A stretch of DNA of 64,000 nucleotides, from assembly GCA_001771185.1 (NCBI GenBank), contig METB01000001.1, positions 375,200 through 439,199 on the forward strand, read 5' to 3'. Below, in pieces: positions 4,477 through 54,554 of the stretch; the first letter of the stretch is position 1; each line of letters starts with the position of its first letter. Below the pieces are notes generated by a model. It had not been told where the DNA came from. It ran no database searches and saw only the letters and a list, made by a program, of their open reading frames with translations. Position numbers and translations under genes: made by a program. The DNA is from a candidate division Kazan bacterium RIFCSPHIGHO2_01_FULL_44_14 (GTDB lineage: Bacteria > Patescibacteriota > Kazan-3B-28).

Positions 4477-6579
4477 CTATTGCTTACTAGAGTCACCATC
4501 GAGAGTTGCTTTGTGGGAAAGATTGATTCGTCCGAGATTATCAATCTCTGTAACTACCACATCTAGCATATCACCCTCTTTGACCACATCGGTTACCCGA
4601 TCAATTCGACGGTCAGCCAATTGCGAAATATGGACAAGCCCTTCCCGACCAGGGAGAACTTCCACAAAAGCACCAAAGTCCATAATTCGAGTGACTCGGC
4701 CGTGGAATTTTTCGCCGGGTTTGATTTCGCGCATCATGTCGCGAATAGTTTGAGCGGCTTGCTCTCCCAATTTGGGGTCGCTAGAAGTAATGAAGGCGTT
4801 GCCGTCTTCTTCAATCGAGATATTGGTCACCCCCTTACCGCCAGCTCGATCAATAATCTCATTAATTACCCGCCCGCCCGGTCCAATCACTTCACCAATT
4901 CGGTCTTGTGGGACTTTGACCACAATCACCCGAGGCGCAAATGGGGATAGTTCAGGACGAGGAGCGGAAATAATCTTGCCCATTTCCGCCAACAAAAATT
5001 CGCGGGCTTGCTTGGCTTGGGCCAAGGCCTCGCTCATAATTTGCTTAGTAATCCCAGCTACTTTAATATCCATTTGAAGAGCCGTAATCCCATCCCGACT
5101 GCCAGCCACTTTAAAGTCCATATCGCCGTTGAAGTCCTCAATCCCGGCGATGTCAGTTAGAATTTTGTATTTGCCTTCACCAGTAACCAAGCCCATGGCG
5201 ATTCCAGCAACTGGTTTCTTAATTGGCACCCCAGCGTCCATCAAAGACAGGGTACTACCACAGACCGAAGCCATCGAACTGGAACCATTACTGGCCAAGA
5301 TTTCCGATACTACCCGGATGGTGTACGGGAAATCTTCGCGAGAGGGAATCATGGGCATCAATGCCCGTTCAGCTAAAGCCCCGTGACCAATTTCCCGTCT
5401 ACCAGTAGTCCGCATTGGTTTAACTTCACCGGTTGCATAGGGAGGAAAATTGTAGTGATGCATATACCGTTTAGTAGTGTCTAATTCCATCGTGTCCAAA
5501 ACCTGCTCGTCGTCTAGTGACCCTAAGGTAACCGTTGAGAGAGCTTGGGTTTCCCCTCGAGTGAATAGAGCCGAACCGTGAGGCCGTGGCAAAACGCCGA
5601 CCTCAATTGACAAGGGACGGATTTGATCCAACTTGCGGCCATCAGGACGCTTGTCGTGTTCTAAAATATTCCGACGGAATTCTTCGCTAACTACTTTTGA
5701 AAAGATGTCAGCCACCACTGCTTCGGGGTTTTCCTCACTAATGAATTCTTCCCAAATGGCCTGCCGCAAAGTATCCAACTTAGTATTGCGAACGATCTTT
5801 TCGGGATGATATAGGGCCTCTTCAAGTTGGCCACCCAGCCGAGTGGCGATATTGGTCTTAAGTTCTGCCGGAGTAGTTGTCACTTCATATTTATCATTCG
5901 CGACATTCAGACGCTTGACTAATTCATGCTGAATCTCGATGGCTGGCTGAAGTGATTTGTGCGCAAATTCGATTGCATCAACCATCTTGGCTTCAGATAC
6001 TTCCAAAGCCCCGGCCTCAACCATCATAATTGCATCTCTAGTCCCGGCTACCACTAAATCAAGCTGACTTTTGGCCCGCTGTTCGTAAGTTGGGTTGAGA
6101 ATAAATTTGTCATCAACTAGTCCAACCCGAACCCCAGCCACTGGACCATTGAAAGGCGCCCCGGCCTGCATCAACGCCGCCGAAGCAGCCGTAATTGATA
6201 ATACATCCGGATCATGAACTAGGTCGGCTGATAGAACTGTGATGACTACCTGGACATCATTATGGAAGCCCTTTGGGAAAAGGGGACGCAGAGGACGATC
6301 AATCAGCCGAGCTGACAAAATGGCATCCTCACTTGGACGGCCTTCTCGCTTGATAAACCGGCTACCCGAAATCTTGCCGGAAGCATAAAACCGCTCCTCA
6401 TAATCGATCATCAATGGGAAGAAATCAATATTCTCCCGCGGGGTTGCAGCTACCACAGCGGTAGCCAACACCACCGTGTCACCAATCCGCAAAGTAACTG
6501 ACCCATTGGCTAGTCCGGCTAGCCGACCAGTTTCCAACGTAAGCTTGGCTTCGCCAAGCTGGGTTTCAAATTTTTCCAT
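4477..6579 (-). CDS. pnp: Polynucleotide phosphorylase
   Basis: Two RNase PH domains followed by KH and S1 domains. Start chosen at MEKFETQ because it follows an AAGGAG Shine-Dalgarno; the track ORF extends further to 6630. Confidence 0.9.
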   Translation of the reverse strand: MEKFETQLGEAKLTLETGRLAGLANGSVTLRIGDTVVLATAVVAATPRENIDFFPLMIDYEERFYASGKISGSRFIKREGRPSEDAILSARLIDRPLRPLFPKGFHNDVQVVITVLSADLVHDPDVLSITAASAALMQAGAPFNGPVAGVRVGLVDDKFILNPTYEQRAKSQLDLVVAGTRDAIMMVEAGALEVSEAKMVDAIEFAHKSLQPAIEIQHELVKRLNVANDKYEVTTTPAELKTNIATRLGGQLEEALYHPEKIVRNTKLDTLRQAIWEEFISEENPEAVVADIFSKVVSEEFRRNILEHDKRPDGRKLDQIRPLSIEVGVLPRPHGSALFTRGETQALSTVTLGSLDDEQVLDTMELDTTKRYMHHYNFPPYATGEVKPMRTTGRREIGHGALAERALMPMIPSREDFPYTIRVVSEILASNGSSSMASVCGSTLSLMDAGVPIKKPVAGIAMGLVTGEGKYKILTDIAGIEDFNGDMDFKVAGSRDGITALQMDIKVAGITKQIMSEALAQAKQAREFLLAEMGKIISAPRPELSPFAPRVIVVKVPQDRIGEVIGPGGRVINEIIDRAGGKGVTNISIEEDGNAFITSSDPKLGEQAAQTIRDMMREIKPGEKFHGRVTRIMDFGAFVEVLPGREGLVHISQLADRRIDRVTDVVKEGDMLDVVVTEIDNLGRINLSHKATLDGDSSKQ

Positions 6580-7039: not shown

Positions 7040-8221
7040 CTAGGCCTCCAGCGCCTCTTTTTCTTGACTGCCCAGAGGAGCTCCTCCGAGCCGACGAGTT
7101 TGGTATTCGCGGACTTTTTCGAGAACAATTGGTTCGGCTTCGCTAATGGTCATGTCGAGCAACTTAAACCCGGCTGCTCCCGGATGCCCACCACCACCAA
7201 ACAGACCAGCCACTTCCATGGCATCTACCCCTTTAGCGGTCCGGATGCTTCCAGAGACGACTCGCGCTTCTTTCTCAGACAACAACAGCACAATGTCGGC
7301 ACCAGGGATACTGGTCATTAATTCGTCAATTAAACCACTGGCTTCTTCTGAACTAGCACCGGTGCTAATAAGGTCCTCTGGGGTAACCGTTGCCCAAGCC
7401 AATTTGGTAGTCATATCAAACTGGATCCGAGATAACACCTGCCCCCAGAGTTTGAGCTGAGACAAGGGCTTGGTCTTAAACAAATGCTTGATGATTTCCT
7501 GCTGACGAGCGCCAAAGCCAACTAATTGGGCCGCAACCGTCAGCGACTTGGGGGTAGTATTGGCATTTTGGAACGAGCCGGTATCGGAAATGATCCCGGT
7601 CAACAAACAAGTGGCGATTTCAGGGTCGATCAGATTCGGCCCCAGCGCTTCAATTAAACCAATTAAAATTTCGGCTGTGGAAGTGGCGGTGAGATCAACT
7701 AAATTAACACTGCCAAAATAAGCGTTGCTAGCATGATGATCAATATTGATGACTGGGACTTCCTGGAATAGGGTAGGGTATCGGTCGTAGGCCTGACCCA
7801 ATTGATGTAAGTCAGCAGCGTCTAGCACAATGATTGCATCATACTTGAACTGCCCCTGAACAAAACTAACATTCTCCGGCTGATACCGACCTCGCTTGGG
7901 CGTAATAATAATGTTCAACTTACCGTCTTCAAAGTTGTAAGACAGTTTGTCGGCTTCGGCCACGGGGCTATCGAGAGTGATGATAAAATCACGAACCCCG
8001 TCAATATCGGTCGCCACCTCGCTGATACTTGGTAAAAATTGATAGACCTGGCTGACAGGATCGAGAATCCCCAAAGACACTTCCTTGTTGAGTTTTTTAA
8101 AAACCTGTAGTAGCGCTAGAGCTGAACCGACCGAATCGCCGTCTGGTCGGCTCGGCACGACCAATATCCGCTGGGCGCGGTTGATTAACTCGACGGTCTG
8201 TTGCTTGGGAGTCGTTTCCAT
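7040..8221 (-). CDS. nrnA: DHH/DHHA1 phosphoesterase (NrnA-like oligoribonuclease / pAp phosphatase)
   Basis: DHH motif (INIDHHASN) and DHHA1 GGGGH motif (GGGGHPGAAG). Confidence 0.7.
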   Translation of the reverse strand: METTPKQQTVELINRAQRILVVPSRPDGDSVGSALALLQVFKKLNKEVSLGILDPVSQVYQFLPSISEVATDIDGVRDFIITLDSPVAEADKLSYNFEDGKLNIIITPKRGRYQPENVSFVQGQFKYDAIIVLDAADLHQLGQAYDRYPTLFQEVPVINIDHHASNAYFGSVNLVDLTATSTAEILIGLIEALGPNLIDPEIATCLLTGIISDTGSFQNANTTPKSLTVAAQLVGFGARQQEIIKHLFKTKPLSQLKLWGQVLSRIQFDMTTKLAWATVTPEDLISTGASSEEASGLIDELMTSIPGADIVLLLSEKEARVVSGSIRTAKGVDAMEVAGLFGGGGHPGAAGFKLLDMTISEAEPIVLEKVREYQTRRLGGAPLGSQEKEALEA

Positions 8222-8461
8222 ATTTGACAGCTCAACATACTGAAATAATCGGGAGGTGTCAATCGAACTCGGCTATTTACAGTTCCACTAATAGGCATTA
8301 CTCTAGGGTCTGTAAGAACTTCTTATGCCTAGTAGAGAATTTTAGAATAATTATATTATCACCAATATAATCACCTCCTAGAAAGTCACATCTCTCTAGA
8401 CAAACAAGTTGCCAGTAGCCACTATAATAAAAATACTACTTTCTAAAATCTTCTACTGGGT

Positions 8462-26700: not shown

Positions 26701-26782
26701 ACCACTGTTTGACAAAAATCCGCTCCGGGAGTATGTTTTTGGTGTCTGTAGTTTTTGAACATTACAATCAAGGAGTGGATAG

Positions 26783-27322
26783 ATGATGGACAAGCAAGGA
26801 ACATCAGGGGTTACGTGGTGGATAGGGGTACTAATGGGGGCGGTGTTGGGAGTGGCCGTTGAGGCCCTTGTCTGCATGGTGCCGGTGGTCAATGGACTCC
26901 CGGCCGAAGTCAAAGCCACTGGCGCAGCAGACTCGGCGTTTGTTGGTGCGTTGTTTGGTGGGTGGTTGATTACAATAGGGATTGTGATCCTCCCCTTATT
27001 GGGTTATATCCCCTACTCCCTGACATCTGCCATTCGCTACTACATCGGGATGACGCCGACCGAGCGCCGGGCCTGGCGACTTCGGAGGAAGCTAGTGCGC
27101 GTCGCAGCTCGGAATAAGCGGATATTGCGCGAGGCCCAAGCTCGGGTCGAGATCGCTCGGTTGGAGGAGCAAAAGATCGCTGAACACCAAAGGACGGTCG
27201 ATGAGTTGGTCACCTGTGACCAGGAGGAGTACAAAACGGCGATGCGGATAACTCGGGCCCTTGAGCCGTCGTTAGCGGCAACGCCATCTCCCAAGCGATC
27301 TTCCCAAGCACATTTTCAGTAA
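26783..27322 (+). CDS. Hypothetical membrane protein (2 TM helices plus charged coiled-coil tail)
   Basis: A rho-independent terminator follows it. It lies inside the segment bounded by the mutM 3'-end duplicates. Confidence 0.45.
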   Translation: MMDKQGTSGVTWWIGVLMGAVLGVAVEALVCMVPVVNGLPAEVKATGAADSAFVGALFGGWLITIGIVILPLLGYIPYSLTSAIRYYIGMTPTERRAWRLRRKLVRVAARNKRILREAQARVEIARLEEQKIAEHQRTVDELVTCDQEEYKTAMRITRALEPSLAATPSPKRSSQAHFQ

Positions 27323-27393
27323 ACCCCGGATCTTCCGCGGATCTGTTTGTCGGGGGGTACCCCATCCCCTATCAAACCTTCAGTAAACCTATA

Positions 27394-27419
27394 AACCGCG
27401 GGTCTCCCGCGGTTTTTTT
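27394..27419 (+). terminator. Rho-independent terminator
   Basis: AACCGCGGG tctc CCGCGGTT hairpin followed by TTTTTTTA. Confidence 0.55.
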
Positions 27420-27519
27420 ATATCCGCCGGGTGGCGGATGATTCTATTGAATCATTTCTAGCCTCTCGACTTCGCTCGAGGTCAATGTTGACAAATCGGC
27501 CCCTCGGCTACGCTCGGGG

Positions 27520-28491
27520 TTACTTCTGACAAATTGGGCAATAGTGAGTACCTCGTCCATTGAGGCGGATTTTTTTGATGGTGCTGCCACAGCGTTTGCG
27601 GCAAGGTAGGTCTTTGCGGTCATAAGCCACGAGGTAGTTTTGCATTTGCCCCATTGCGCCCTCGGGGGTGCGGTGGGTGTTGACGCTGGTGCCCATGTAT
27701 TTGATACCTTTTTCTAAAACCTTTTTAATAGCAGAAACGAGTTTGGTGGTGTCGGCTTTGGTGATGGATTTGCCGAGTCGGGTTGGTTTGATGCCGGCGT
27801 AAAAAAGGGCTTCATCGGAATAGATATTGCCAATGCCGGTGACGAGAGATTGGTCTAAAATGATGGTTTTGATGTTGCTCTTGGGGCGACGCTGGATGGC
27901 GGAGTATAAAAAGGCGGGAGTAAAGTTTTTGTCGAACGGCTCCATCCCAAGGTTGGAAAAGAATTTGTCATTTGGGACTTCGGCGGTGGGAGTGAGTTTG
28001 ACCCAGCCGAACCGGCGTTGGTCATTGAAATAGAGATTTCCTTTACTTAACTCAAACCAAACCCGAGTGTGGCGGGACGGCATGGTTTCGATAAAGTTTT
28101 TGTCGGGATGGCCGTAGTTGAGGCGTCCTTTTTCTAATTTGTCACCCCGAACTTGTTTCAGGATCTTGGTTTTAGATGCCGAAACGAGTTCGGCATGACG
28201 AGAGTGGGGGATATAAATCAACTGCCCCGTCATTTTTAGGTGAATCAATAAAGAAAGATCTGACCCGCCCGCACTTCGAGCTGTGGCGGGTTGTTTTGCC
28301 AACGAAACAATAATGCCCTTGCCTCGACGGGTGATGTTTTTAATACTTGCCCCGCGGAGACCTTGTCTCTTTGCGGGGGTGAATCCGAGAGTGCTTCTGG
28401 CCGAGAGAATTTTGACCTGTTTAATTTTCTGCCCGACGATGTGTCGGGAGAGGCCTCTTACTACCGTCTCTACCTCGGGTAACTCTGGCAT
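27520..28491 (-). CDS. mutM: Formamidopyrimidine-DNA glycosylase (Fpg/MutM) with ~50-aa internal insertion
   Basis: MPELPEVE N-terminus with catalytic Pro2/Glu3, H2TH region, and a C-terminal zinc finger CRKRCGSTIKKIRLNGRGTHYCPICQK. Confidence 0.8.
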   Translation of the reverse strand: MPELPEVETVVRGLSRHIVGQKIKQVKILSARSTLGFTPAKRQGLRGASIKNITRRGKGIIVSLAKQPATARSAGGSDLSLLIHLKMTGQLIYIPHSRHAELVSASKTKILKQVRGDKLEKGRLNYGHPDKNFIETMPSRHTRVWFELSKGNLYFNDQRRFGWVKLTPTAEVPNDKFFSNLGMEPFDKNFTPAFLYSAIQRRPKSNIKTIILDQSLVTGIGNIYSDEALFYAGIKPTRLGKSITKADTTKLVSAIKKVLEKGIKYMGTSVNTHRTPEGAMGQMQNYLVAYDRKDLPCRKRCGSTIKKIRLNGRGTHYCPICQK

Positions 28492-28623: not shown

Positions 28624-28803
28624 TTATAGGGGGTAGAACGCTTGCCGGGTCCACTTGTCAAAAACCTGTGTCTTTTCTATCCCAAGAGAGGTGGTAATCA
28701 GTCGGGTATCATAGCGGGTGTTAAGGGCAAACAAGAAGCCAAGCATAATCGCAAGAAGGGCAAGGATGGGCCAAATATATTTTTCCCAGGGAGCAGTTTT
28801 CAT
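28624..28803 (-). CDS. Possible 59-aa single-TM protein (below the ORF-track cutoff)
   Basis: Hand translation gives MKTAPWEKYIWPILALLAIMLGFLFALNTRYD... No clear Shine-Dalgarno. Confidence 0.2.
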   Translation of the reverse strand: MKTAPWEKYIWPILALLAIMLGFLFALNTRYDTRLITTSLGIEKTQVFDKWTRQAFYPL

Positions 28804-28859: not shown

Positions 28860-29447
28860 TTATTTATAGTGTTTGGGGTTGTGAGTAGCTCGGGTGTGTT
28901 GATCTGTGGCAGGGGGAGTATTAAGGCGGGTTACGATCGCCCAAAAGTGGGAATACATTTTTTCTTGTGCTTCATTGGTCAAAGTATTGTTGTGCAATAT
29001 GTCATTGCGCCACTGATTTAGATCCTTTAACTTAGTGACTAACGGGGTGTCTAACCTAAGCTCCTCACGAGCGAACTCGATCTTGCCATAGAAATTGGCA
29101 GTTTTTAGAAGGAGTTTTTTAATTTTTTTCTTAACACTTGAGTCGGAGGTTACATGGGAGCTTATATAATCGTCTAGCTCCCGCTCGCATACAAAGTGGT
29201 ATAGAATGAGTTCTGTTTTTTTGATTGCGATGTTAAACAATTCACCTCCACGAACCTGCTTTTTGTAGTGATTGTTAAATACTCGGGAGGCGGTAGCAGA
29301 AGTTCTTGTGGCTCTATTTGCCAACAGTTGTTTCAAAAGAGGAGCATCCTCTATATCGTTGGTTATTGCCATAAAAACCAATGGGTAGTAGAGCTTTTTA
29401 AGCTTTTCTCGTACTCCTTGGCTATTTGGAGTAATTGCACGGCTCAT
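28860..29447 (-). CDS. Hypothetical protein with possible HEPN-like RNxxxH motif
   Basis: C-terminal WRNDILHNN fits the R-x4-6-H pattern of HEPN RNases. The start codon overlaps the stop of the polA-fragment pseudo-ORF. Confidence 0.4.
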   Translation of the reverse strand: MSRAITPNSQGVREKLKKLYYPLVFMAITNDIEDAPLLKQLLANRATRTSATASRVFNNHYKKQVRGGELFNIAIKKTELILYHFVCERELDDYISSHVTSDSSVKKKIKKLLLKTANFYGKIEFAREELRLDTPLVTKLKDLNQWRNDILHNNTLTNEAQEKMYSHFWAIVTRLNTPPATDQHTRATHNPKHYK

Positions 29448-29448
29448 A

Positions 29449-29568
29449 TCTTTTTGGTTTCTCCCCAGCTTACTCCAGCTTCGACAACCACATGGATAGG
29501 GACATCGAGCTGATAGACATTTTCCATTTTGTCGCGGACGAGTTTGGTGATGGACTCTATCATTGATA
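29449..29568 (-). pseudogene. Divergent duplicate of the polA 3' end (39 codons)
   Basis: Minus-strand translation MIESITKLVRDKMENVYQLDVPIHVVVEAGVSWGETKKI* matches the PolA C-terminus KKVAKLVKDKMENVYQLDVPIHVDAEAGVNWGETKPA*. About 85% nucleotide identity to 30662..30780. Confidence 0.6.
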
Positions 29569-29826
29569 TCCTAATATTTCCAGAGTGGCCTTGACGGATG
29601 GATTAGTAGTGTTCAATAGCGTTACCCTGCCGGGGTATTTCTCGAATAACGGTCGCAGAAACTCATCCCCCCAAGAAGGAGCAAAGGCATTAACGCCGGC
29701 AAAATCAATTTCCAATGATTCGCCCGAGGAAATATCTGTAAGCTGTGATTGTAATGCCAAGGCGGCGTCTCGGCCAGCTGGTCGCGACATCAAGATGGCG
29801 CCAAATTTTTCTAATTTAATCAGCAT
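29560..29826 (-). CDS. STAS-like domain protein (DUF4325-like)
   Basis: 88 aa. ...LEIDFAGVNAFAPSWGDEFLRPLF resembles the DUF4325/STAS fold that is frequently encoded next to GHKL ATPases. Confidence 0.45.
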   Translation of the reverse strand: MLIKLEKFGAILMSRPAGRDAALALQSQLTDISSGESLEIDFAGVNAFAPSWGDEFLRPLFEKYPGRVTLLNTTNPSVKATLEILGYQ

Positions 29827-29843
29827 AACCCTAAGTCAAAGAA

Positions 29844-30590
29844 TTAGAAGTAGAGAACCGCTAGGCAGCCGCGCAAAAAGGGAGCCAGTTGAACCTTTAA
29901 ATCAGTATCATTCTGTCGTAGTTCAAGTTTCGCATCGCCGGATTGGAAAGTAAGACGCAGAGGATTTTCGGTAACCACTTTGCGGGTGAGTTTCAAGCCG
30001 TTGCCCCTCGCTTCCGGGTCGCGACCGGATATTCTTTCGGTGAAAGCGAGCCAAAGGGCGTCTTGGTGGGTTTGGAGATTAGGACGGACGCGCTGGAGGG
30101 TATGTAACACGCCTACGCCACGATCGGCCATCACTAAGTATCTATCGAAGATGCTGTAGTAGAAATAAATCCCGGGCAGGTCAGGCCAATTACCAATATT
30201 GTGGTCAAATGAATTGTTGCCAATCTCACCAGCAACAATAGTGATTAAGGGAGTTAAATAGCGTAACGTTGGCACTTTGGTTAGTTCGTAGGCCATTCGT
30301 TCTATGCGGGCAGAAAATACATCACGGGTGGCGCAGTACTGGTCTGGTGAGGGCACGATCCGATTCTCTGGCACGGTCGCCCAGTGGAGCGCGGAGTTCA
30401 CCAGGGGCGCAGTTCTTTTTAGGCGTTTGGCATAAATAGTGGCCTCGATATCTTCGGCAAGATAGTAGCGGTGCCCCGTGGCAGAGGCGCGATGGGACTT
30501 GAGTGCTCCGCTACTGTCCCAGCGTCTTAGGGTGTCCATCGAAACCCCGAGCCGTTTGGCCGCCTCGCCTATGTAGAGATGTTTAGTCAT
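29844..30590 (-). CDS. MerR/excisionase-type HTH fused to GHKL (HATPase_c) ATPase domain
   Basis: N-terminal IGEAAKRLGVSMDTLRRW helix-turn-helix. C-terminal half has an N-box-like EIGNNSFDH, DRGVGV (G1) and GRDPEARGNGLKL (G2). Confidence 0.5.
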   Translation of the reverse strand: MTKHLYIGEAAKRLGVSMDTLRRWDSSGALKSHRASATGHRYYLAEDIEATIYAKRLKRTAPLVNSALHWATVPENRIVPSPDQYCATRDVFSARIERMAYELTKVPTLRYLTPLITIVAGEIGNNSFDHNIGNWPDLPGIYFYYSIFDRYLVMADRGVGVLHTLQRVRPNLQTHQDALWLAFTERISGRDPEARGNGLKLTRKVVTENPLRLTFQSGDAKLELRQNDTDLKVQLAPFLRGCLAVLYF

Positions 30591-30661
30591 ACCTGTAATC
30601 TATGTATTTTACGACCTAATTATATCAAAATGCATAGATTGCGTCAATGGGCGAGTTGGGG

Positions 30662-32848
30662 CTAGGCAGGTTTGGTTTCGCCCCAGTTTACACCAGCTTC
30701 GGCATCGACATGGATGGGGACATCGAGCTGATAAACATTTTCCATTTTGTCCTTTACGAGTTTGGCGACCTTTTTGATGTCTTTGGTCGGGACTTCCAGC
30801 ACTAGTTCGTCGTGGACTTGGAGAAGCATTCGAGAACCTGGACTTGCTTTCGGCAGGGCTTTGGCGAGTTCAATCATGGCGACTTTCAGTAAGTCAGCGG
30901 CGGTGCCTTGGACGGGCATATTGATAGCGGCGCGGATGGAAGCGTTGCGGACGGCGGGGACTTGGGATTTAATTTCTGGGATGTAGCGACGACGGCCAAA
31001 CAAAGTTTCAACATAGCCATGCTGTTTAGCGAAGGCGGCGGTGTCGTCCATATATTGTTTGATTTCCGGATGAAGTTCGAAGTATTTATGAATATAGTTG
31101 GTGGCCTGGTGGATGGTCATATTAGTTCGAGCGGCCAGGCCGTAAGGGGAGACGCCGTAGATGATGCCGAAGTTAATCACCTTGGCATTTCGGCGCATGT
31201 CTTTGGTGACATCTTTAATTTTGACGCCGTTGACTTCAGCGGCGACGGTAGTGTGGATGTCCTCACCTTTATTGAAAGTCCGAATCATTCGCTTGTCGTG
31301 AGCGAGGGAGGCAATAACCCGCAGTTCGATTTGAGAATAATCAGCAGAGATTAACCGGAAACTCTTGGGGGCAATAAAGGCCTTGCGGATTTCGGCGCCC
31401 AAGTCAGAACGGATGGGAATGTTTTGAAGGTTGGGGTCTTTGGATGAAAGCCGTCCAGTGGAAGTGTCTTGGGCGTAAGTGGTGTGGACGCGGTTGTTTT
31501 TGTCGACTAGTTTAGGCAGGGTTTCGAGGTAGGTGTTCTTGAGTTTGGTGAGCTGACGATATTCTAAAATATGTTTGATAACAGGATGAGCGCGGTAGAT
31601 TTTTTCAAGTTCCGATACCCCGGTGGAATAGCCGGTCTTGCCAGTCAGTCGACGGCCAGGAGTTTTGGCGATATCTAAAGTTGGGAGTCCAAGGTCTTTG
31701 AATAAAAAAGTTGCCAGTTGAGCAGGGGAACTGATGTTAAATGGCTGGTCGGCGTATTTGTGGATATTCTTCTCGAGTTTTTCAATGCGAATGGAGATTT
31801 GGTCGTTTAGTTTTTTGAGCAGTTTAATGTCCAGCAAAATACCCGCTCGTTCCATTTTGCGGAGGATGGGGTCAAGTTGTTGGTCGAGGTCTTTCACGGT
31901 TTTTTTCTGGGGCCCTTTAGACCGACGGGCCTTATCAAAAAAAGATGCTTGTTTCCCAGCCGGTGGGGTTGTGAGGGTCCCGTTGGGAATTTTTTCATAG
32001 AGGGTCTTGAAGCCCATCCGCCGGAAGAATTCGGCAACTCGGAATTTATCGAAAGCGATGGCCTCGGCTTTGGCTAAATCAAGCTTGATAGGGATGGCGG
32101 TATGAATAGTGGCCAACCCCTGACTTTTGATGGCGTCCGGTTTACTCTTTTTTAATTTATCGGCGATGGTGGGAGAAATCTTCTCCAAGTTTTCATAGAT
32201 GGTTTCGATAGTCCCAAATTCTTGTAGAAGTTTGAGGGCAGTGACTTCACCAATGCCAGCCACCCCGGGGATGTTGTCAGAGGGGTCACCGCGGAGTCCT
32301 TTAAAATCGATAACTTGGTCGGGGCGGATGCCTTTGGTTTTTAAAACTTCTTCGGGGGTGTAGATGACGATATCGGAAAAACCTTTGCGCGGGGCATATA
32401 CAAAAATATGGTCGTTTACTAGTTGGAGGGCGTCCATATCACCGGTGGCAATGTAGGTATCGAGGGTGGCCGGGGCTTGCTTGGCCAATGTTCCAATAAT
32501 GTCATCCGCTTCAAAACCGTCTTTCAAAAAGACCGGGACATTGAAACTTTCGAGCAAGGCCTGAACTTCGGGGATTTGGTCGTAGAGTTCCTGGGGAGCT
32601 TTAATGCGAGTGGCCTTGTACTCAACATATTCTTTGTGGCGGAAAGTCGGGGCATTGGTATCAAAAGCCACTGCGATATAGTCGGGCTTGAGGCGGGTGT
32701 AAATGTTGATTAACATCACGGCAAAACCATAAATTGCCGTGGTGGGAGCGCCTGATGGGGAGGTGAGATTGGCACGTGAAAAAGCGTGGAAGGCACGGTG
32801 GACCAGGGCGTTGCCATCAATAAGGACTAGTTTTTTTCTAATAGTCAT
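30662..32848 (-). CDS. polA: DNA polymerase I (5'-3' exonuclease plus polymerase domains; no room for a 3'-5' exonuclease domain)
   Basis: N-terminal LVLIDGNALVHRAFHAF 5'-nuclease motif. C-terminal motif A (DYSQIELR), motif B (RRNAKVINFGIIYG) and motif C (QVHDEL). Only 728 aa. Confidence 0.9.
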   Translation of the reverse strand: MTIRKKLVLIDGNALVHRAFHAFSRANLTSPSGAPTTAIYGFAVMLINIYTRLKPDYIAVAFDTNAPTFRHKEYVEYKATRIKAPQELYDQIPEVQALLESFNVPVFLKDGFEADDIIGTLAKQAPATLDTYIATGDMDALQLVNDHIFVYAPRKGFSDIVIYTPEEVLKTKGIRPDQVIDFKGLRGDPSDNIPGVAGIGEVTALKLLQEFGTIETIYENLEKISPTIADKLKKSKPDAIKSQGLATIHTAIPIKLDLAKAEAIAFDKFRVAEFFRRMGFKTLYEKIPNGTLTTPPAGKQASFFDKARRSKGPQKKTVKDLDQQLDPILRKMERAGILLDIKLLKKLNDQISIRIEKLEKNIHKYADQPFNISSPAQLATFLFKDLGLPTLDIAKTPGRRLTGKTGYSTGVSELEKIYRAHPVIKHILEYRQLTKLKNTYLETLPKLVDKNNRVHTTYAQDTSTGRLSSKDPNLQNIPIRSDLGAEIRKAFIAPKSFRLISADYSQIELRVIASLAHDKRMIRTFNKGEDIHTTVAAEVNGVKIKDVTKDMRRNAKVINFGIIYGVSPYGLAARTNMTIHQATNYIHKYFELHPEIKQYMDDTAAFAKQHGYVETLFGRRRYIPEIKSQVPAVRNASIRAAINMPVQGTAADLLKVAMIELAKALPKASPGSRMLLQVHDELVLEVPTKDIKKVAKLVKDKMENVYQLDVPIHVDAEAGVNWGETKPA

Positions 32849-54464: not shown

Positions 54465-54554
54465 GGAGGCGTGGCCGAGTGGTTTATGGCGCTAGTCTCG
54501 AAAACTGGTTGGGGAGTAATCCCCTCGGAGGTTCAAATCCTCCCGCCTCCGCCA
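54465..54554 (+). tRNA. tRNA-Ser (anticodon CGA), type II with long variable arm, CCA encoded
   Basis: Acceptor stem GGAGGCG/CGCCTCC. Anticodon stem CTAGT/ACTGG with loop CTCGAAA. T-arm GGTTCAAATCC. Confidence 0.85.

Follow-up and report, generated by a model that had tools for sequence, protein, structure and literature searches.

Three adjacent genes lie between polA and fpg on the minus strand of a 64-kb stretch of DNA from a Kazan-group bacterium of the Candidate Phyla Radiation (CPR); do they form one defence module or two separate units? In this stretch (the window, on whose coordinates all positions are given), polA is followed in the order of the minus strand by a gene for a helix-turn-helix (HTH) protein with a GHKL domain, a DUF4325 STAS-like gene, a 98-nt copy of the polA end, a 195-aa HEPN-like open reading frame (ORF), a 59-aa ORF and fpg (Table 1). 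The original prediction had joined the HTH-GHKL, STAS-like and HEPN-like genes into one island-borne, defence-like module, and all three ORFs that it named are present. The evidence presented here favours another reading, in which the region consists of two independent units joined by insertion into a variable polA-fpg hotspot and is not a conserved three-gene system. The apparent module would then separate into its real parts, of which the HTH-GHKL/STAS pair is the more valuable one.

The polA-end duplication and the limits of the insert

A scar of the polA gene separates the STAS gene from the 195-aa gene. Bases 29453-29550 repeat the true 3' end of polA (30671-30768) directly, with 87% identity over 98 nt, as had been noticed before. 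The translation of the scar runs to its stop codon as KMENVYQLDVPIHVVVEAGVSWGETKKI and that of the polA counterpart as KMENVYQLDVPIHVDAEAGVNWGETKPA; the two tails are also given in the form VPIHVVVEAGVSWGETKKI (scar) and VPIHVDAEAGVNWGETKPA (polA). The TGA of the scar and the start codon of the 195-aa ORF share an ATGA overlap, which agrees with the earlier description. The last two codons and the stop of polA (CCT GCC TAG) lie outside the repeat and are thus supplied by the cassette side. Since the 98-nt duplication encloses the HTH-GHKL and STAS genes only, the 195-aa gene lies outside the insert; it remains joined to the stop of the original polA end and preserves the ancestral overlap.

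The arrangement without the pair is seen at the loci of two homologues of the 195-aa protein. The gene for the first, P0123 (213 aa), lies in the order FemAB-murE-SIMPL-polA-P0123-fpg-...-recF-dnaN-dnaA, where a 4-nt overlap joins its start to the polA stop and fpg comes next; an HTH-GHKL or STAS gene is absent among the listed neighbours, over about 6 kb on each side. The gene for the second, P0122, starts inside the last codons of polA (ending in NWGERNG) on L007, and the DNA examined around it holds no sign of the pair. Because P0122 and P0123 directly follow polA without the pair, the window represents such an 'empty site' to which a cassette of ~1.1 kb and a duplication of 98 nt have been added, and polA sites of both kinds, filled in the window and empty at the P0123 and P0122 loci, are present. 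As judged from the repeat and the gene order, a two-gene cassette (about 29551-30670) is inserted near the polA stop and has duplicated ~98 nt of the polA end. The second unit would be the rare HEPN-like gene, which was originally the next gene after polA, the polA stop and its own start overlapping.

The genes polA and fpg are conserved core genes on either side of this interval, and the same polA...fpg frame is found in L001, L008 and the contig of P0123. In L001, from a related Kazan genome, three tandem copies of the polA 3' end (5788-5870, 7040-7122 and 8227-8277) separate the pair, a second cassette (a 170-aa protein that is weakly PIN-like, E=0.03, and an unrelated 195-aa protein) and a 213-aa gene before fpg, and L008 has different cargo again ahead of fpg. 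With cargo that differs among the window, L001 and L008, the interval between polA and fpg is a hotspot of variable cargo. The functional polA tail of L001 is like that of L008 and its scars are like the tail of the window, which suggests exchange between lineages. With up to three stacked polA-end copies, the interval offers a clean natural case of cargo accumulation at a core-gene 3' end. In the window, the GC content of the 195-aa ORF is 0.41, compared with 0.476 for the whole stretch, and the 59-aa ORF is possibly further hotspot cargo or no gene at all. The 195-aa and 213-aa ORFs of L001 were considered as homologues of the HEPN-like protein and rejected, as neither resembles the family profile and BLASTP finds no similarity for the 213-aa ORF.

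Table 1. Features of the polA-fpg interval of the window and the evidence for each.
Feature	Coordinates	Strand	Evidence
polA, 728 aa, 5'-nuclease and family A polymerase	30662..32848	-	Pfam DNA_pol_A (E=2e-147), 5_3_exonuc_N, 5_3_exonuc
polA 3' end, functional (left) repeat copy	30671..30768	-	98-nt direct repeat, 87% identity; translation; alignment
Predicted sigma-70-like promoter carried by the cassette	30619..30647	-	TTGACG-17-TATAAT with TG extension; 11/12 consensus
Candidate operator, inverted repeat AATCTATGCATTTT-N16-AAAATACATAGATT	30597..30640	-	14-nt arms, 1 mismatch
HTH-GHKL gene, 248 aa	29844..30590	-	Pfam MerR (E=8e-11); structure prediction; Foldseek; invariant boxes
STAS-like DUF4325 gene, 88 aa	29560..29826	-	Pfam PF14213 over cut-off; 187 homologues
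Scar, displaced original polA 3' end (right copy)	29444..29550	-	Repeat and translation
HEPN-like ORF, 195 aa	28860..29447	-	R147-N-D-I-L-H152 at bases 28992-29009
59-aa ORF with hydrophobic stretch, between HEPN-like gene and fpg	28624..28803	-	No Pfam match
fpg/mutM	27520..28491	-	Pfam Fapy_DNA_glyco, H2TH, zf-FPG

The HTH-GHKL/STAS pair across Patescibacteria

A scan of one genome per GTDB species returned at least 545 relatives of the HTH-GHKL protein, and the best 80 loci were examined. The STAS gene follows the HTH-GHKL gene on the same strand in 78 of the 78 other loci with room downstream, at a spacing of -37 to +29 nt and often with a 4-nt overlap, while a HEPN-like profile matches at 0 of the 80 pair loci. 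No third gene recurs beside the pair at these 80 loci; the 149 immediate neighbour genes represent 216 Pfam families, of which the commonest, AbiEii, occurs four times. The invariable pairing with STAS, the lack of HEPN-like matches and the lack of a recurrent third gene together mark the pair as a complete unit. Co-occurrence of the three genes elsewhere, proposed earlier as a check, was never seen, and the single three-gene module is also contradicted by the duplication that encloses the pair alone and by the HEPN-like homologues that follow polA without it.

The pair is very widespread in Patescibacteria, being represented in at least 545 genomes at species level and by thousands of proteins from metagenomes. 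Two copies are found in one metagenome-assembled genome (MAG) in two cases (L012 and L040 in CAZWLI01; L075 and L083 in CAYXST01), which is unusual for a housekeeping regulator. A search of 2.9 million viral contigs gave a single match. Full-text literature searches returned no paper describing the pair family, no DUF4325 paper concerned with it and nothing that treats partner-switching together with Patescibacteria, and the family is apparently undescribed so far. At some loci the pair has defence or toxin-like genes as neighbours; it lies beside a 555-aa HATPase_c_3 protein, DUF3800 and Fic in L003 (3868-5535) and beside PhdYeFM/ParE in L004 (7687-8189). Several pair-bearing MAGs (L010, L021, L024, L025, L030 and others) are titled 'uncultured Gammaproteobacteria bacterium' and are probably mislabelled bins.

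The 248-aa protein comprises an HTH of the MerR/IS607-TnpA/excisionase type (aa 5-50), a helical linker and a Bergerat-fold ATPase/kinase domain (approximately aa 105-248). Pfam detects only the MerR-type HTH, which is nearest to the N-terminus of IS607 transposases and to excisionase-type HTHs. The AlphaFold2 (AF2) model, built on an alignment of 30 sequences, has a predicted local distance difference test (pLDDT) value of 88.9, and Foldseek matches its C-terminal domain to the ATPase domains of TRAP1/Hsp90, MutL, GyrB, TopoII and TopoVI with probabilities of 0.96-1.0 and E-values of ~4e-4 to 2e-3. The N, G1 and G2 boxes (E122-x3-N126-x3-H130, D156xG158xG160 and R195-G196-x-G198) are invariant in the 30 sequences. 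The C-terminal domain has the GHKL fold in the predicted structure, and the earlier HTH-GHKL assignment holds for both halves of the protein, with probabilities of ~1.0 for MutL, GyrB and TopoII. At E<=1e-3 the protein has 4970 relatives of ~50% identity, in the Woese-, Gottesman-, Levy-, Roizman-, Peregrini-, Magasanik- and other CPR groups. PADLOC, run on all three proteins, gave as its sole match that of the HTH to mad1, and the HTH-GHKL profile matched PDB sequences in the HTH only. Residues 1-131 show a weak tblastn and NCBIfam likeness to IS607-family serine transposases, in the HTH part, with ~30-34% identity; a likeness reaching past the HTH was rejected, as AF2 places helices there and not a resolvase fold.

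The STAS-like nature of the 88-aa protein, also predicted before, was confirmed by a match to Pfam DUF4325 (PF14213; E=4.4e-6, 26.7 bits against a cut-off of 23). Its homologues share ~55-65% identity, are mostly 87-97 aa long and for the most part carry the PF14213 annotation. Ser51 is invariant within P-S-W-[GA]-D-E-F in 25 STAS sequences. Its equivalence to SpoIIAA S58, CapS S54 and VapS S48 is a motif comparison only, the hhalign comparison to SpoIIAA not being significant, and the STAS profile gave nothing meaningful against PDB sequences. The SpoIIAB and SpoIIAA sequences used for comparison were verified against PDB 1TIL and 1AUZ.

In the window, the leader of the pair has a near-consensus promoter, and an inverted repeat that overlaps it holds a family-wide GCATAGATT-type motif (Table 1). 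The pattern [GT][CT]ATAG[AGT]T occurs in 160 copies in 83 family leaders, 61 of which have at least two, corresponding to a ~40-fold enrichment over the rest of the loci (0.048 per 130 nt); the strict motif has one match elsewhere in the window, as many as chance would give. These sites are most likely the target of the fused HTH, and the pair would then be autoregulated. As a side observation, a longer form, T-G-[CT]-A-T-A-G-[AG]-T-T-T, conserved among CPR classes, is present in 2-3 copies over the -35/-10 region. These copies stand mostly in direct orientation, with inverted ones in the Kazan loci.

For flanking repeats, the 300 nt ahead of the HTH gene were searched for sequence that recurs after the STAS stop, at 75 testable loci and in 450 shifted controls. 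Such repeats flank 13 of the 75 pair loci and 7 of the 450 controls (Fisher p=1.3e-7, ~11-fold enriched). They are 16-94 nt long and 83-100% identical, with the right copy at most ~130 nt, and mostly at most 20 nt, from the STAS stop. They overlap the ends of varied genes or ORFs, namely polA (the window, L001 and L008), a 284-aa ORF (L025) and minus-strand ORFs of 414 aa (L054) and 239 aa (L081). Direct repeats of the 3' end of the target gene together with a restored gene, by which integrative elements are recognized, are both found here. The pair apparently behaves as a mobile cassette of ~1.1-1.2 kb across Patescibacteria, as far as repeats and gene contexts can tell. Candidate routes of insertion are staggered cuts, Campbell-type recombination of a circle with one repeat, or mobilization in trans. 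Examples of the repeats are found in L050 (4814-4906/6038-6130), L081 (4735-4871/6032-6140) and L054 (2683-2723/3965-4005), and duplications flanking the pair in distant CPR lineages are much longer than ordinary transposon target-site duplications.

The pair might instead be an ordinary CPR regulator inherited vertically, with the flanking repeats as incidental local duplications, which would fit the conservation of the HTH-GHKL protein across many CPR classes (~50% identity), the strict operon structure, the 62 of 75 loci without a flanking repeat and the single match among viral contigs. The lack of conserved synteny, with neighbours from 216 families, the double copies in single MAGs, the excess of repeats over controls with their right copies close to the STAS stop, and the existence of both filled and empty polA sites make this rather unlikely. 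At the other extreme, the pair could mobilize itself. It seems extremely unlikely that the IS607-TnpA/excisionase-type HTH serves this end by binding the repeated GCATAGATT sites at the left end of the cassette, and we would give just as little credence to a GHKL ATPase and a STAS-like protein bearing Ser, Arg and Asp that catalyse or direct insertion at gene ends with unusually long target duplications (16-150 nt). If true, the pair would represent a novel type of mobile cassette that is on the move among CPR bacteria.

Further duplications are seen in the window. The 3' end of fpg (GRGTHYCPICQK) is also duplicated (26661-26707/27516-27562, 47 nt, 83%), leaving a second scar whose ORF ends in GRGTHFCPLCQK. 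The two copies bracket an insert of ~0.8 kb (26708-27515, GC 0.546) with a plus-strand ORF of 179 aa; this ORF has hydrophobic stretches, is charged in its C-terminal half and is without a Pfam match. Two more direct repeats of 79-93 nt and 85-88% identity, either scars or repeated leaders, flank a 230-aa gene that clusters with an ATPase-like ORF of 596 aa (46445-46523/47228-47306) and tRNA-Ser(gct) with a deaminase-like ORF (55518-55610/56244-56336). A repeat at 54465/56384 was rejected as a scar, since it consists of two tRNA-Ser genes. As for the flanking core genes, PolA has no Pfam-detectable 3'-5' exonuclease domain between its 5'-nuclease and polymerase domains (aa ~265-340). Fpg is 323 aa long, compared with 287-288 aa in relatives, and its N-terminal Pfam domain match spans aa 1-163 on a model of 117 positions, which implies an insertion of ~45 aa.

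The 195-aa HEPN-like protein

The 195-aa protein (A3K24_02055, 'hypothetical protein', the sole match in a word-indexed protein search) contains the stretch LNQWRNDILHNNTL, in which R147 lies at 29009-29007 and H152 at 28994-28992. The WRNDILH motif, on which the earlier HEPN call was based, occupies residues 146-152. Proteins of the HEPN superfamily share an Rx4-6H motif with a polar residue (N, D or H) after the arginine, and an upstream acidic residue typically within Ex3[KR] (PMC3710099). The motif of the 195-aa protein has this form (R147-N148-D-I-L-H152). A motif R[NHDQ]x3-5H is found in 9 of the 47 window ORFs of at least 150 aa (19%) and is thus common by chance, so that the weight of RNDxxH must come from conservation and fold.

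Conservation could be followed in a very small family. In a HMMER scan of 1.84 billion representative proteins, only P0122 (E=1.8e-17), P0123 (E=5.8e-8) and P0124 (phmmer E=6.3e-5) were found, the last of which is a genuine member of AbiD/Abi_2 (Pfam E=1.3e-42; PADLOC AbiD E=4e-53). In the three-member alignment, L-N-x-W-R-N-D-x-x-H and an upstream H-F-[VI]-x-E (E88) are invariant; the position at +4 from E88 is D, N or D across the three members, and the K/R of Ex3[KR] is not there. RNDxxH aligns with RNICAH of P0124. With hhalign, the three-member profile likewise aligns at the motif with a single AbiD sequence, at a probability of 2.7% that is not significant. P0122 matches HEPN_RiboL-PSP (PF18735; E=2.9e-4) with 21.2 bits, below the cut-off of 28.4. 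The best library match of the 195-aa protein is phrog_5483, whose function is not annotated (E=3e-8, and E=6e-6 for P0123). No match of the three-member profile to PDB sequences, no confirmed relative by family patterns in JGI metagenome contigs or IMG/VR viral contigs and no tblastn match of the 195-aa protein in GenBank phages were found, and a BFVD fold search gave one uncharacterized phage protein (probability 0.90), the rest being noise.

The AF2 model of the 195-aa protein, built on the alignment of three sequences, is all-helical with a mean pLDDT of 67.8, rising to ~80-90 in the core (aa 70-175), and the motif lies within the helix 134-153. The better-scoring Foldseek matches in the PDB (probability above ~0.4) are mostly HEPN-fold proteins, i.e. 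HepT (7bxo, 5yep, 6m6w), 1wwp, SsR10 (2q00, 2jpu), MtlR/YggD and Csm6. With E-values of 0.7-3 and TM-scores of 0.32-0.56, none of these matches is significant. The structure prediction, proposed earlier as a check of the HEPN assignment, places the motif in a helix and ranks HEPN folds best, without a significant match.

We consider it likely that the 195-aa protein belongs to the HEPN superfamily, and it is probably an HEPN RNase of the AbiD/RiboL-PSP type, the RNase activity being taken from the family (PMC3710099); the earlier RNase reading remains plausible in the light of the invariant RNDxxH, the phmmer link to AbiD, the sub-threshold RiboL-PSP match of a homologue and the best folds. 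A minor but real chance is left for an unrelated helical protein in which RNDxxH is family-specific and has another role. The protein has no significant match to any HEPN model, every Foldseek E-value exceeds 0.5, similar motifs occur in 19% of long window ORFs and the top library match is a PHROG lacking an assigned function, all of which would suit such a protein. It is disfavoured by the invariance of R, N, H and E88 in the family, the alignment with the AbiD motif, the match of P0122 to HEPN_RiboL-PSP and the preponderance of HEPN folds among the better-scoring structural matches.

AbiD and AbiF are HEPN families to which RiboL-PSP-HEPN is distantly related (Anantharaman et al. 2013, PMC3710099). 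With AbiD/AbiF (Abi_2) and RiboL-PSP-HEPN the 195-aa protein shares RNxxxH, the polar residue after R, an upstream acidic residue and a predicted all-helical structure, and its gene shares the setting of a single toxin or Abi-like gene in a variable region. AbiD proteins are longer (~330 aa) and their sequence similarity is borderline only, and the 195-aa protein differs from AbiD and RiboL-PSP by the missing Ex3[KR] and by a fixed place overlapping the polA stop that is peculiar to it. HepT of the HEPN-MNT systems provides the best, non-significant structural matches, whereas no MNT antitoxin adjoins the 195-aa gene. The polA-coupled family would be a new, small and very rare branch near AbiD and RiboL-PSP. 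By its likeness to these families, the 195-aa protein would dimerize to form a composite RNxxxH site and, when activated, act as a metal-independent RNase of the AbiD/AbiF/RiboL-PSP kind, its gene being stand-alone toxin or abortive-infection-type cargo.

One module or two units, and comparison with kinase-STAS systems

Several results weigh against two independent units or against the roles proposed for them. The HEPN-like family has three members only, which makes its absence beside the pair elsewhere weakly informative from the HEPN side. The HEPN call is statistically weak, given the E-values and the shallow AF2 alignment described above, and the 195-aa protein itself has no HEPN match in Pfam, PADLOC or NCBIfam. 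The likeness of the pair to SpoIIAB and SpoIIAA, although the motifs are collinear, is not significant in hhalign (E=0.12 for the HTH-GHKL and E=0.52 for the STAS profile). The cassette holds the HTH-GHKL and STAS genes only, with no recombinase domain recognized by Pfam, NCBIfam or AF2, and flanking repeats are found at only ~17% of pair loci. Characterized kinase-STAS relatives do control adjacent toxins or immune operons (PMC13373217). Finally, crude consensus scans of the stretch from the STAS gene to the 195-aa gene detected no promoter or terminator; one transcript may cover all three genes, and read-through from the cassette could now drive the HEPN-like gene.

These points bear on two other readings, for which published systems offer models. 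In CapKS, CapK is an HTH-STAS-GHKL kinase activated by single-stranded DNA, and CapS is a repressor with STAS and winged HTH (wHTH) domains that is phosphorylated on a conserved Ser; the STAS gene invariably comes right after the CapK gene, in most cases with an immune operon behind it (Chambers et al., EMBO J 2026, PMC13373217). In VapKSC, the kinase phosphorylates a STAS antitoxin that has a C-terminal inhibitory helix, and the PIN toxin is released (PMC13373217).

The pair could be a CapK/CapS-type controller of an adjacent pathway that gates the HEPN-like gene by read-through, with no protein complex. CapKS modules de-repress variable immune cargo located downstream of them (PMC13373217), a strong promoter with a candidate operator is predicted for the pair, and nothing in the scans isolates the 195-aa gene from it. 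This seems unlikely, as only 47 of 77 loci have their downstream gene on the strand of the pair, and the 22 tightly spaced downstream genes all differ and are not recognizably immune, several looking like housekeeping genes by their N-termini (RuvC-, YchF-, RadC- and phosphoglycerate-mutase-like); in addition, the juxtaposition in the window arose through insertion into polA.

A lineage-specific trio resembling VapKSC and assembled secondarily, in which the HTH-GHKL kinase would phosphorylate the STAS antitoxin and so free the HEPN RNase toxin, is in our view very unlikely. VapKSC follows the same logic, with a kinase, a STAS antitoxin with conserved Ser and an RNase toxin (PMC13373217), DUF4325 genes are reported to be coupled to a PIN subgroup (PMC5499597), the three window genes share one strand with no terminator detected between them, and the L001 gene that follows pair and scar is weakly PIN-like (E=0.03). 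Set against this, the HEPN-like homologues directly after polA show no sign of the pair, so that the putative toxin can apparently do without a STAS antitoxin; at more than 78 loci no nuclease partner accompanies the pair, a polA scar lies between the units, and the 88-aa STAS protein is without the C-terminal inhibitory extension that VapS requires (PMC13373217).

The reading of two units is in our view the likely one, and the most likely mechanisms for it are drawn from gene order, conservation, fold, motifs, operator repeats and the scar. The first unit (~29551-30670) would be a self-contained two-gene cassette with its own promoter, GCATAGATT-type sites, a DNA-binding GHKL protein and a small STAS protein. 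The HTH-GHKL protein would bind the GCATAGATT sites at its own promoter, and its GHKL domain would bind the STAS protein and phosphorylate the invariant Ser51 with ATP, by analogy with SpoIIAB/SpoIIAA, CapK/CapS and VapK/VapS. Phosphorylation of Ser51 may toggle DNA binding by the HTH, or oligomerization, in the manner of a partner switch.

With CapK-CapS the CPR pair shares a two-gene arrangement of a GHKL anti-sigma-type kinase with N-terminal HTH and a STAS protein with a conserved Ser, predicted autoregulation via sites in its own region and a place next to variable cargo, and the kinase-then-STAS order is as strict (78 of 78 loci with room). It is set apart from CapK/CapS by comparison with their published descriptions. 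CapK has an internal STAS domain, whereas AF2 predicts only helices at aa 45-129 of the 248-aa protein; CapS carries a wHTH and is a repressor, whereas the CPR STAS protein consists of a single 88-aa domain, and the one HTH of the pair belongs to the GHKL protein. CapKS mostly precedes an immune operon, unlike the CPR pair (216 neighbour families, AbiEii at most four times).

The window resembles VapKSC in the order of kinase, STAS and RNase genes, in the small STAS protein with a conserved Ser and in the reported coupling of DUF4325 to a PIN subgroup (PMC5499597). VapKSC recurs as a three-gene operon that encodes a PIN toxin, whereas the CPR pair has no conserved third gene, and the nuclease of the window is HEPN-like, lies beyond a polA scar and has homologues without a sign of the pair. 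VapS has a C-terminal extension, while the CPR STAS protein ends right after the core, the family being mostly 87-97 aa long. Without an internal STAS domain, a wHTH or extension, a third gene or immune cargo, the CPR pair stands outside both CapKS and VapKSC.

With SpoIIAB the 248-aa protein shares collinear N (E-x3-N-x3-H), G1 (DxGxG) and G2 (RxGxG) boxes, although its top Foldseek matches are Hsp90, MutL and GyrB instead, and by motif comparison Ser51 lies at a place comparable to Ser58 of SpoIIAA, at the start of a STAS helix. SpoIIAB-SpoIIAA and RsbW-RsbV have a sigma-factor partner, whereas the CPR pair has none and its output domain would be the fused HTH. On these analogies, the CPR pair would work like a partner-switch pair, most like CapK/CapS and VapK/VapS, with a different domain layout. 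It combines a GHKL kinase-like domain fused to a DNA-binding domain, a strict minimal-STAS partner, a conserved candidate operator and signs of mobility, and so presents a simple, testable switch in organisms whose regulation is poorly understood. The pair thus brings the kinase-STAS theme of CapK/CapS and VapK/VapS, published only in 2026, into the Candidate Phyla Radiation in a reshuffled architecture.

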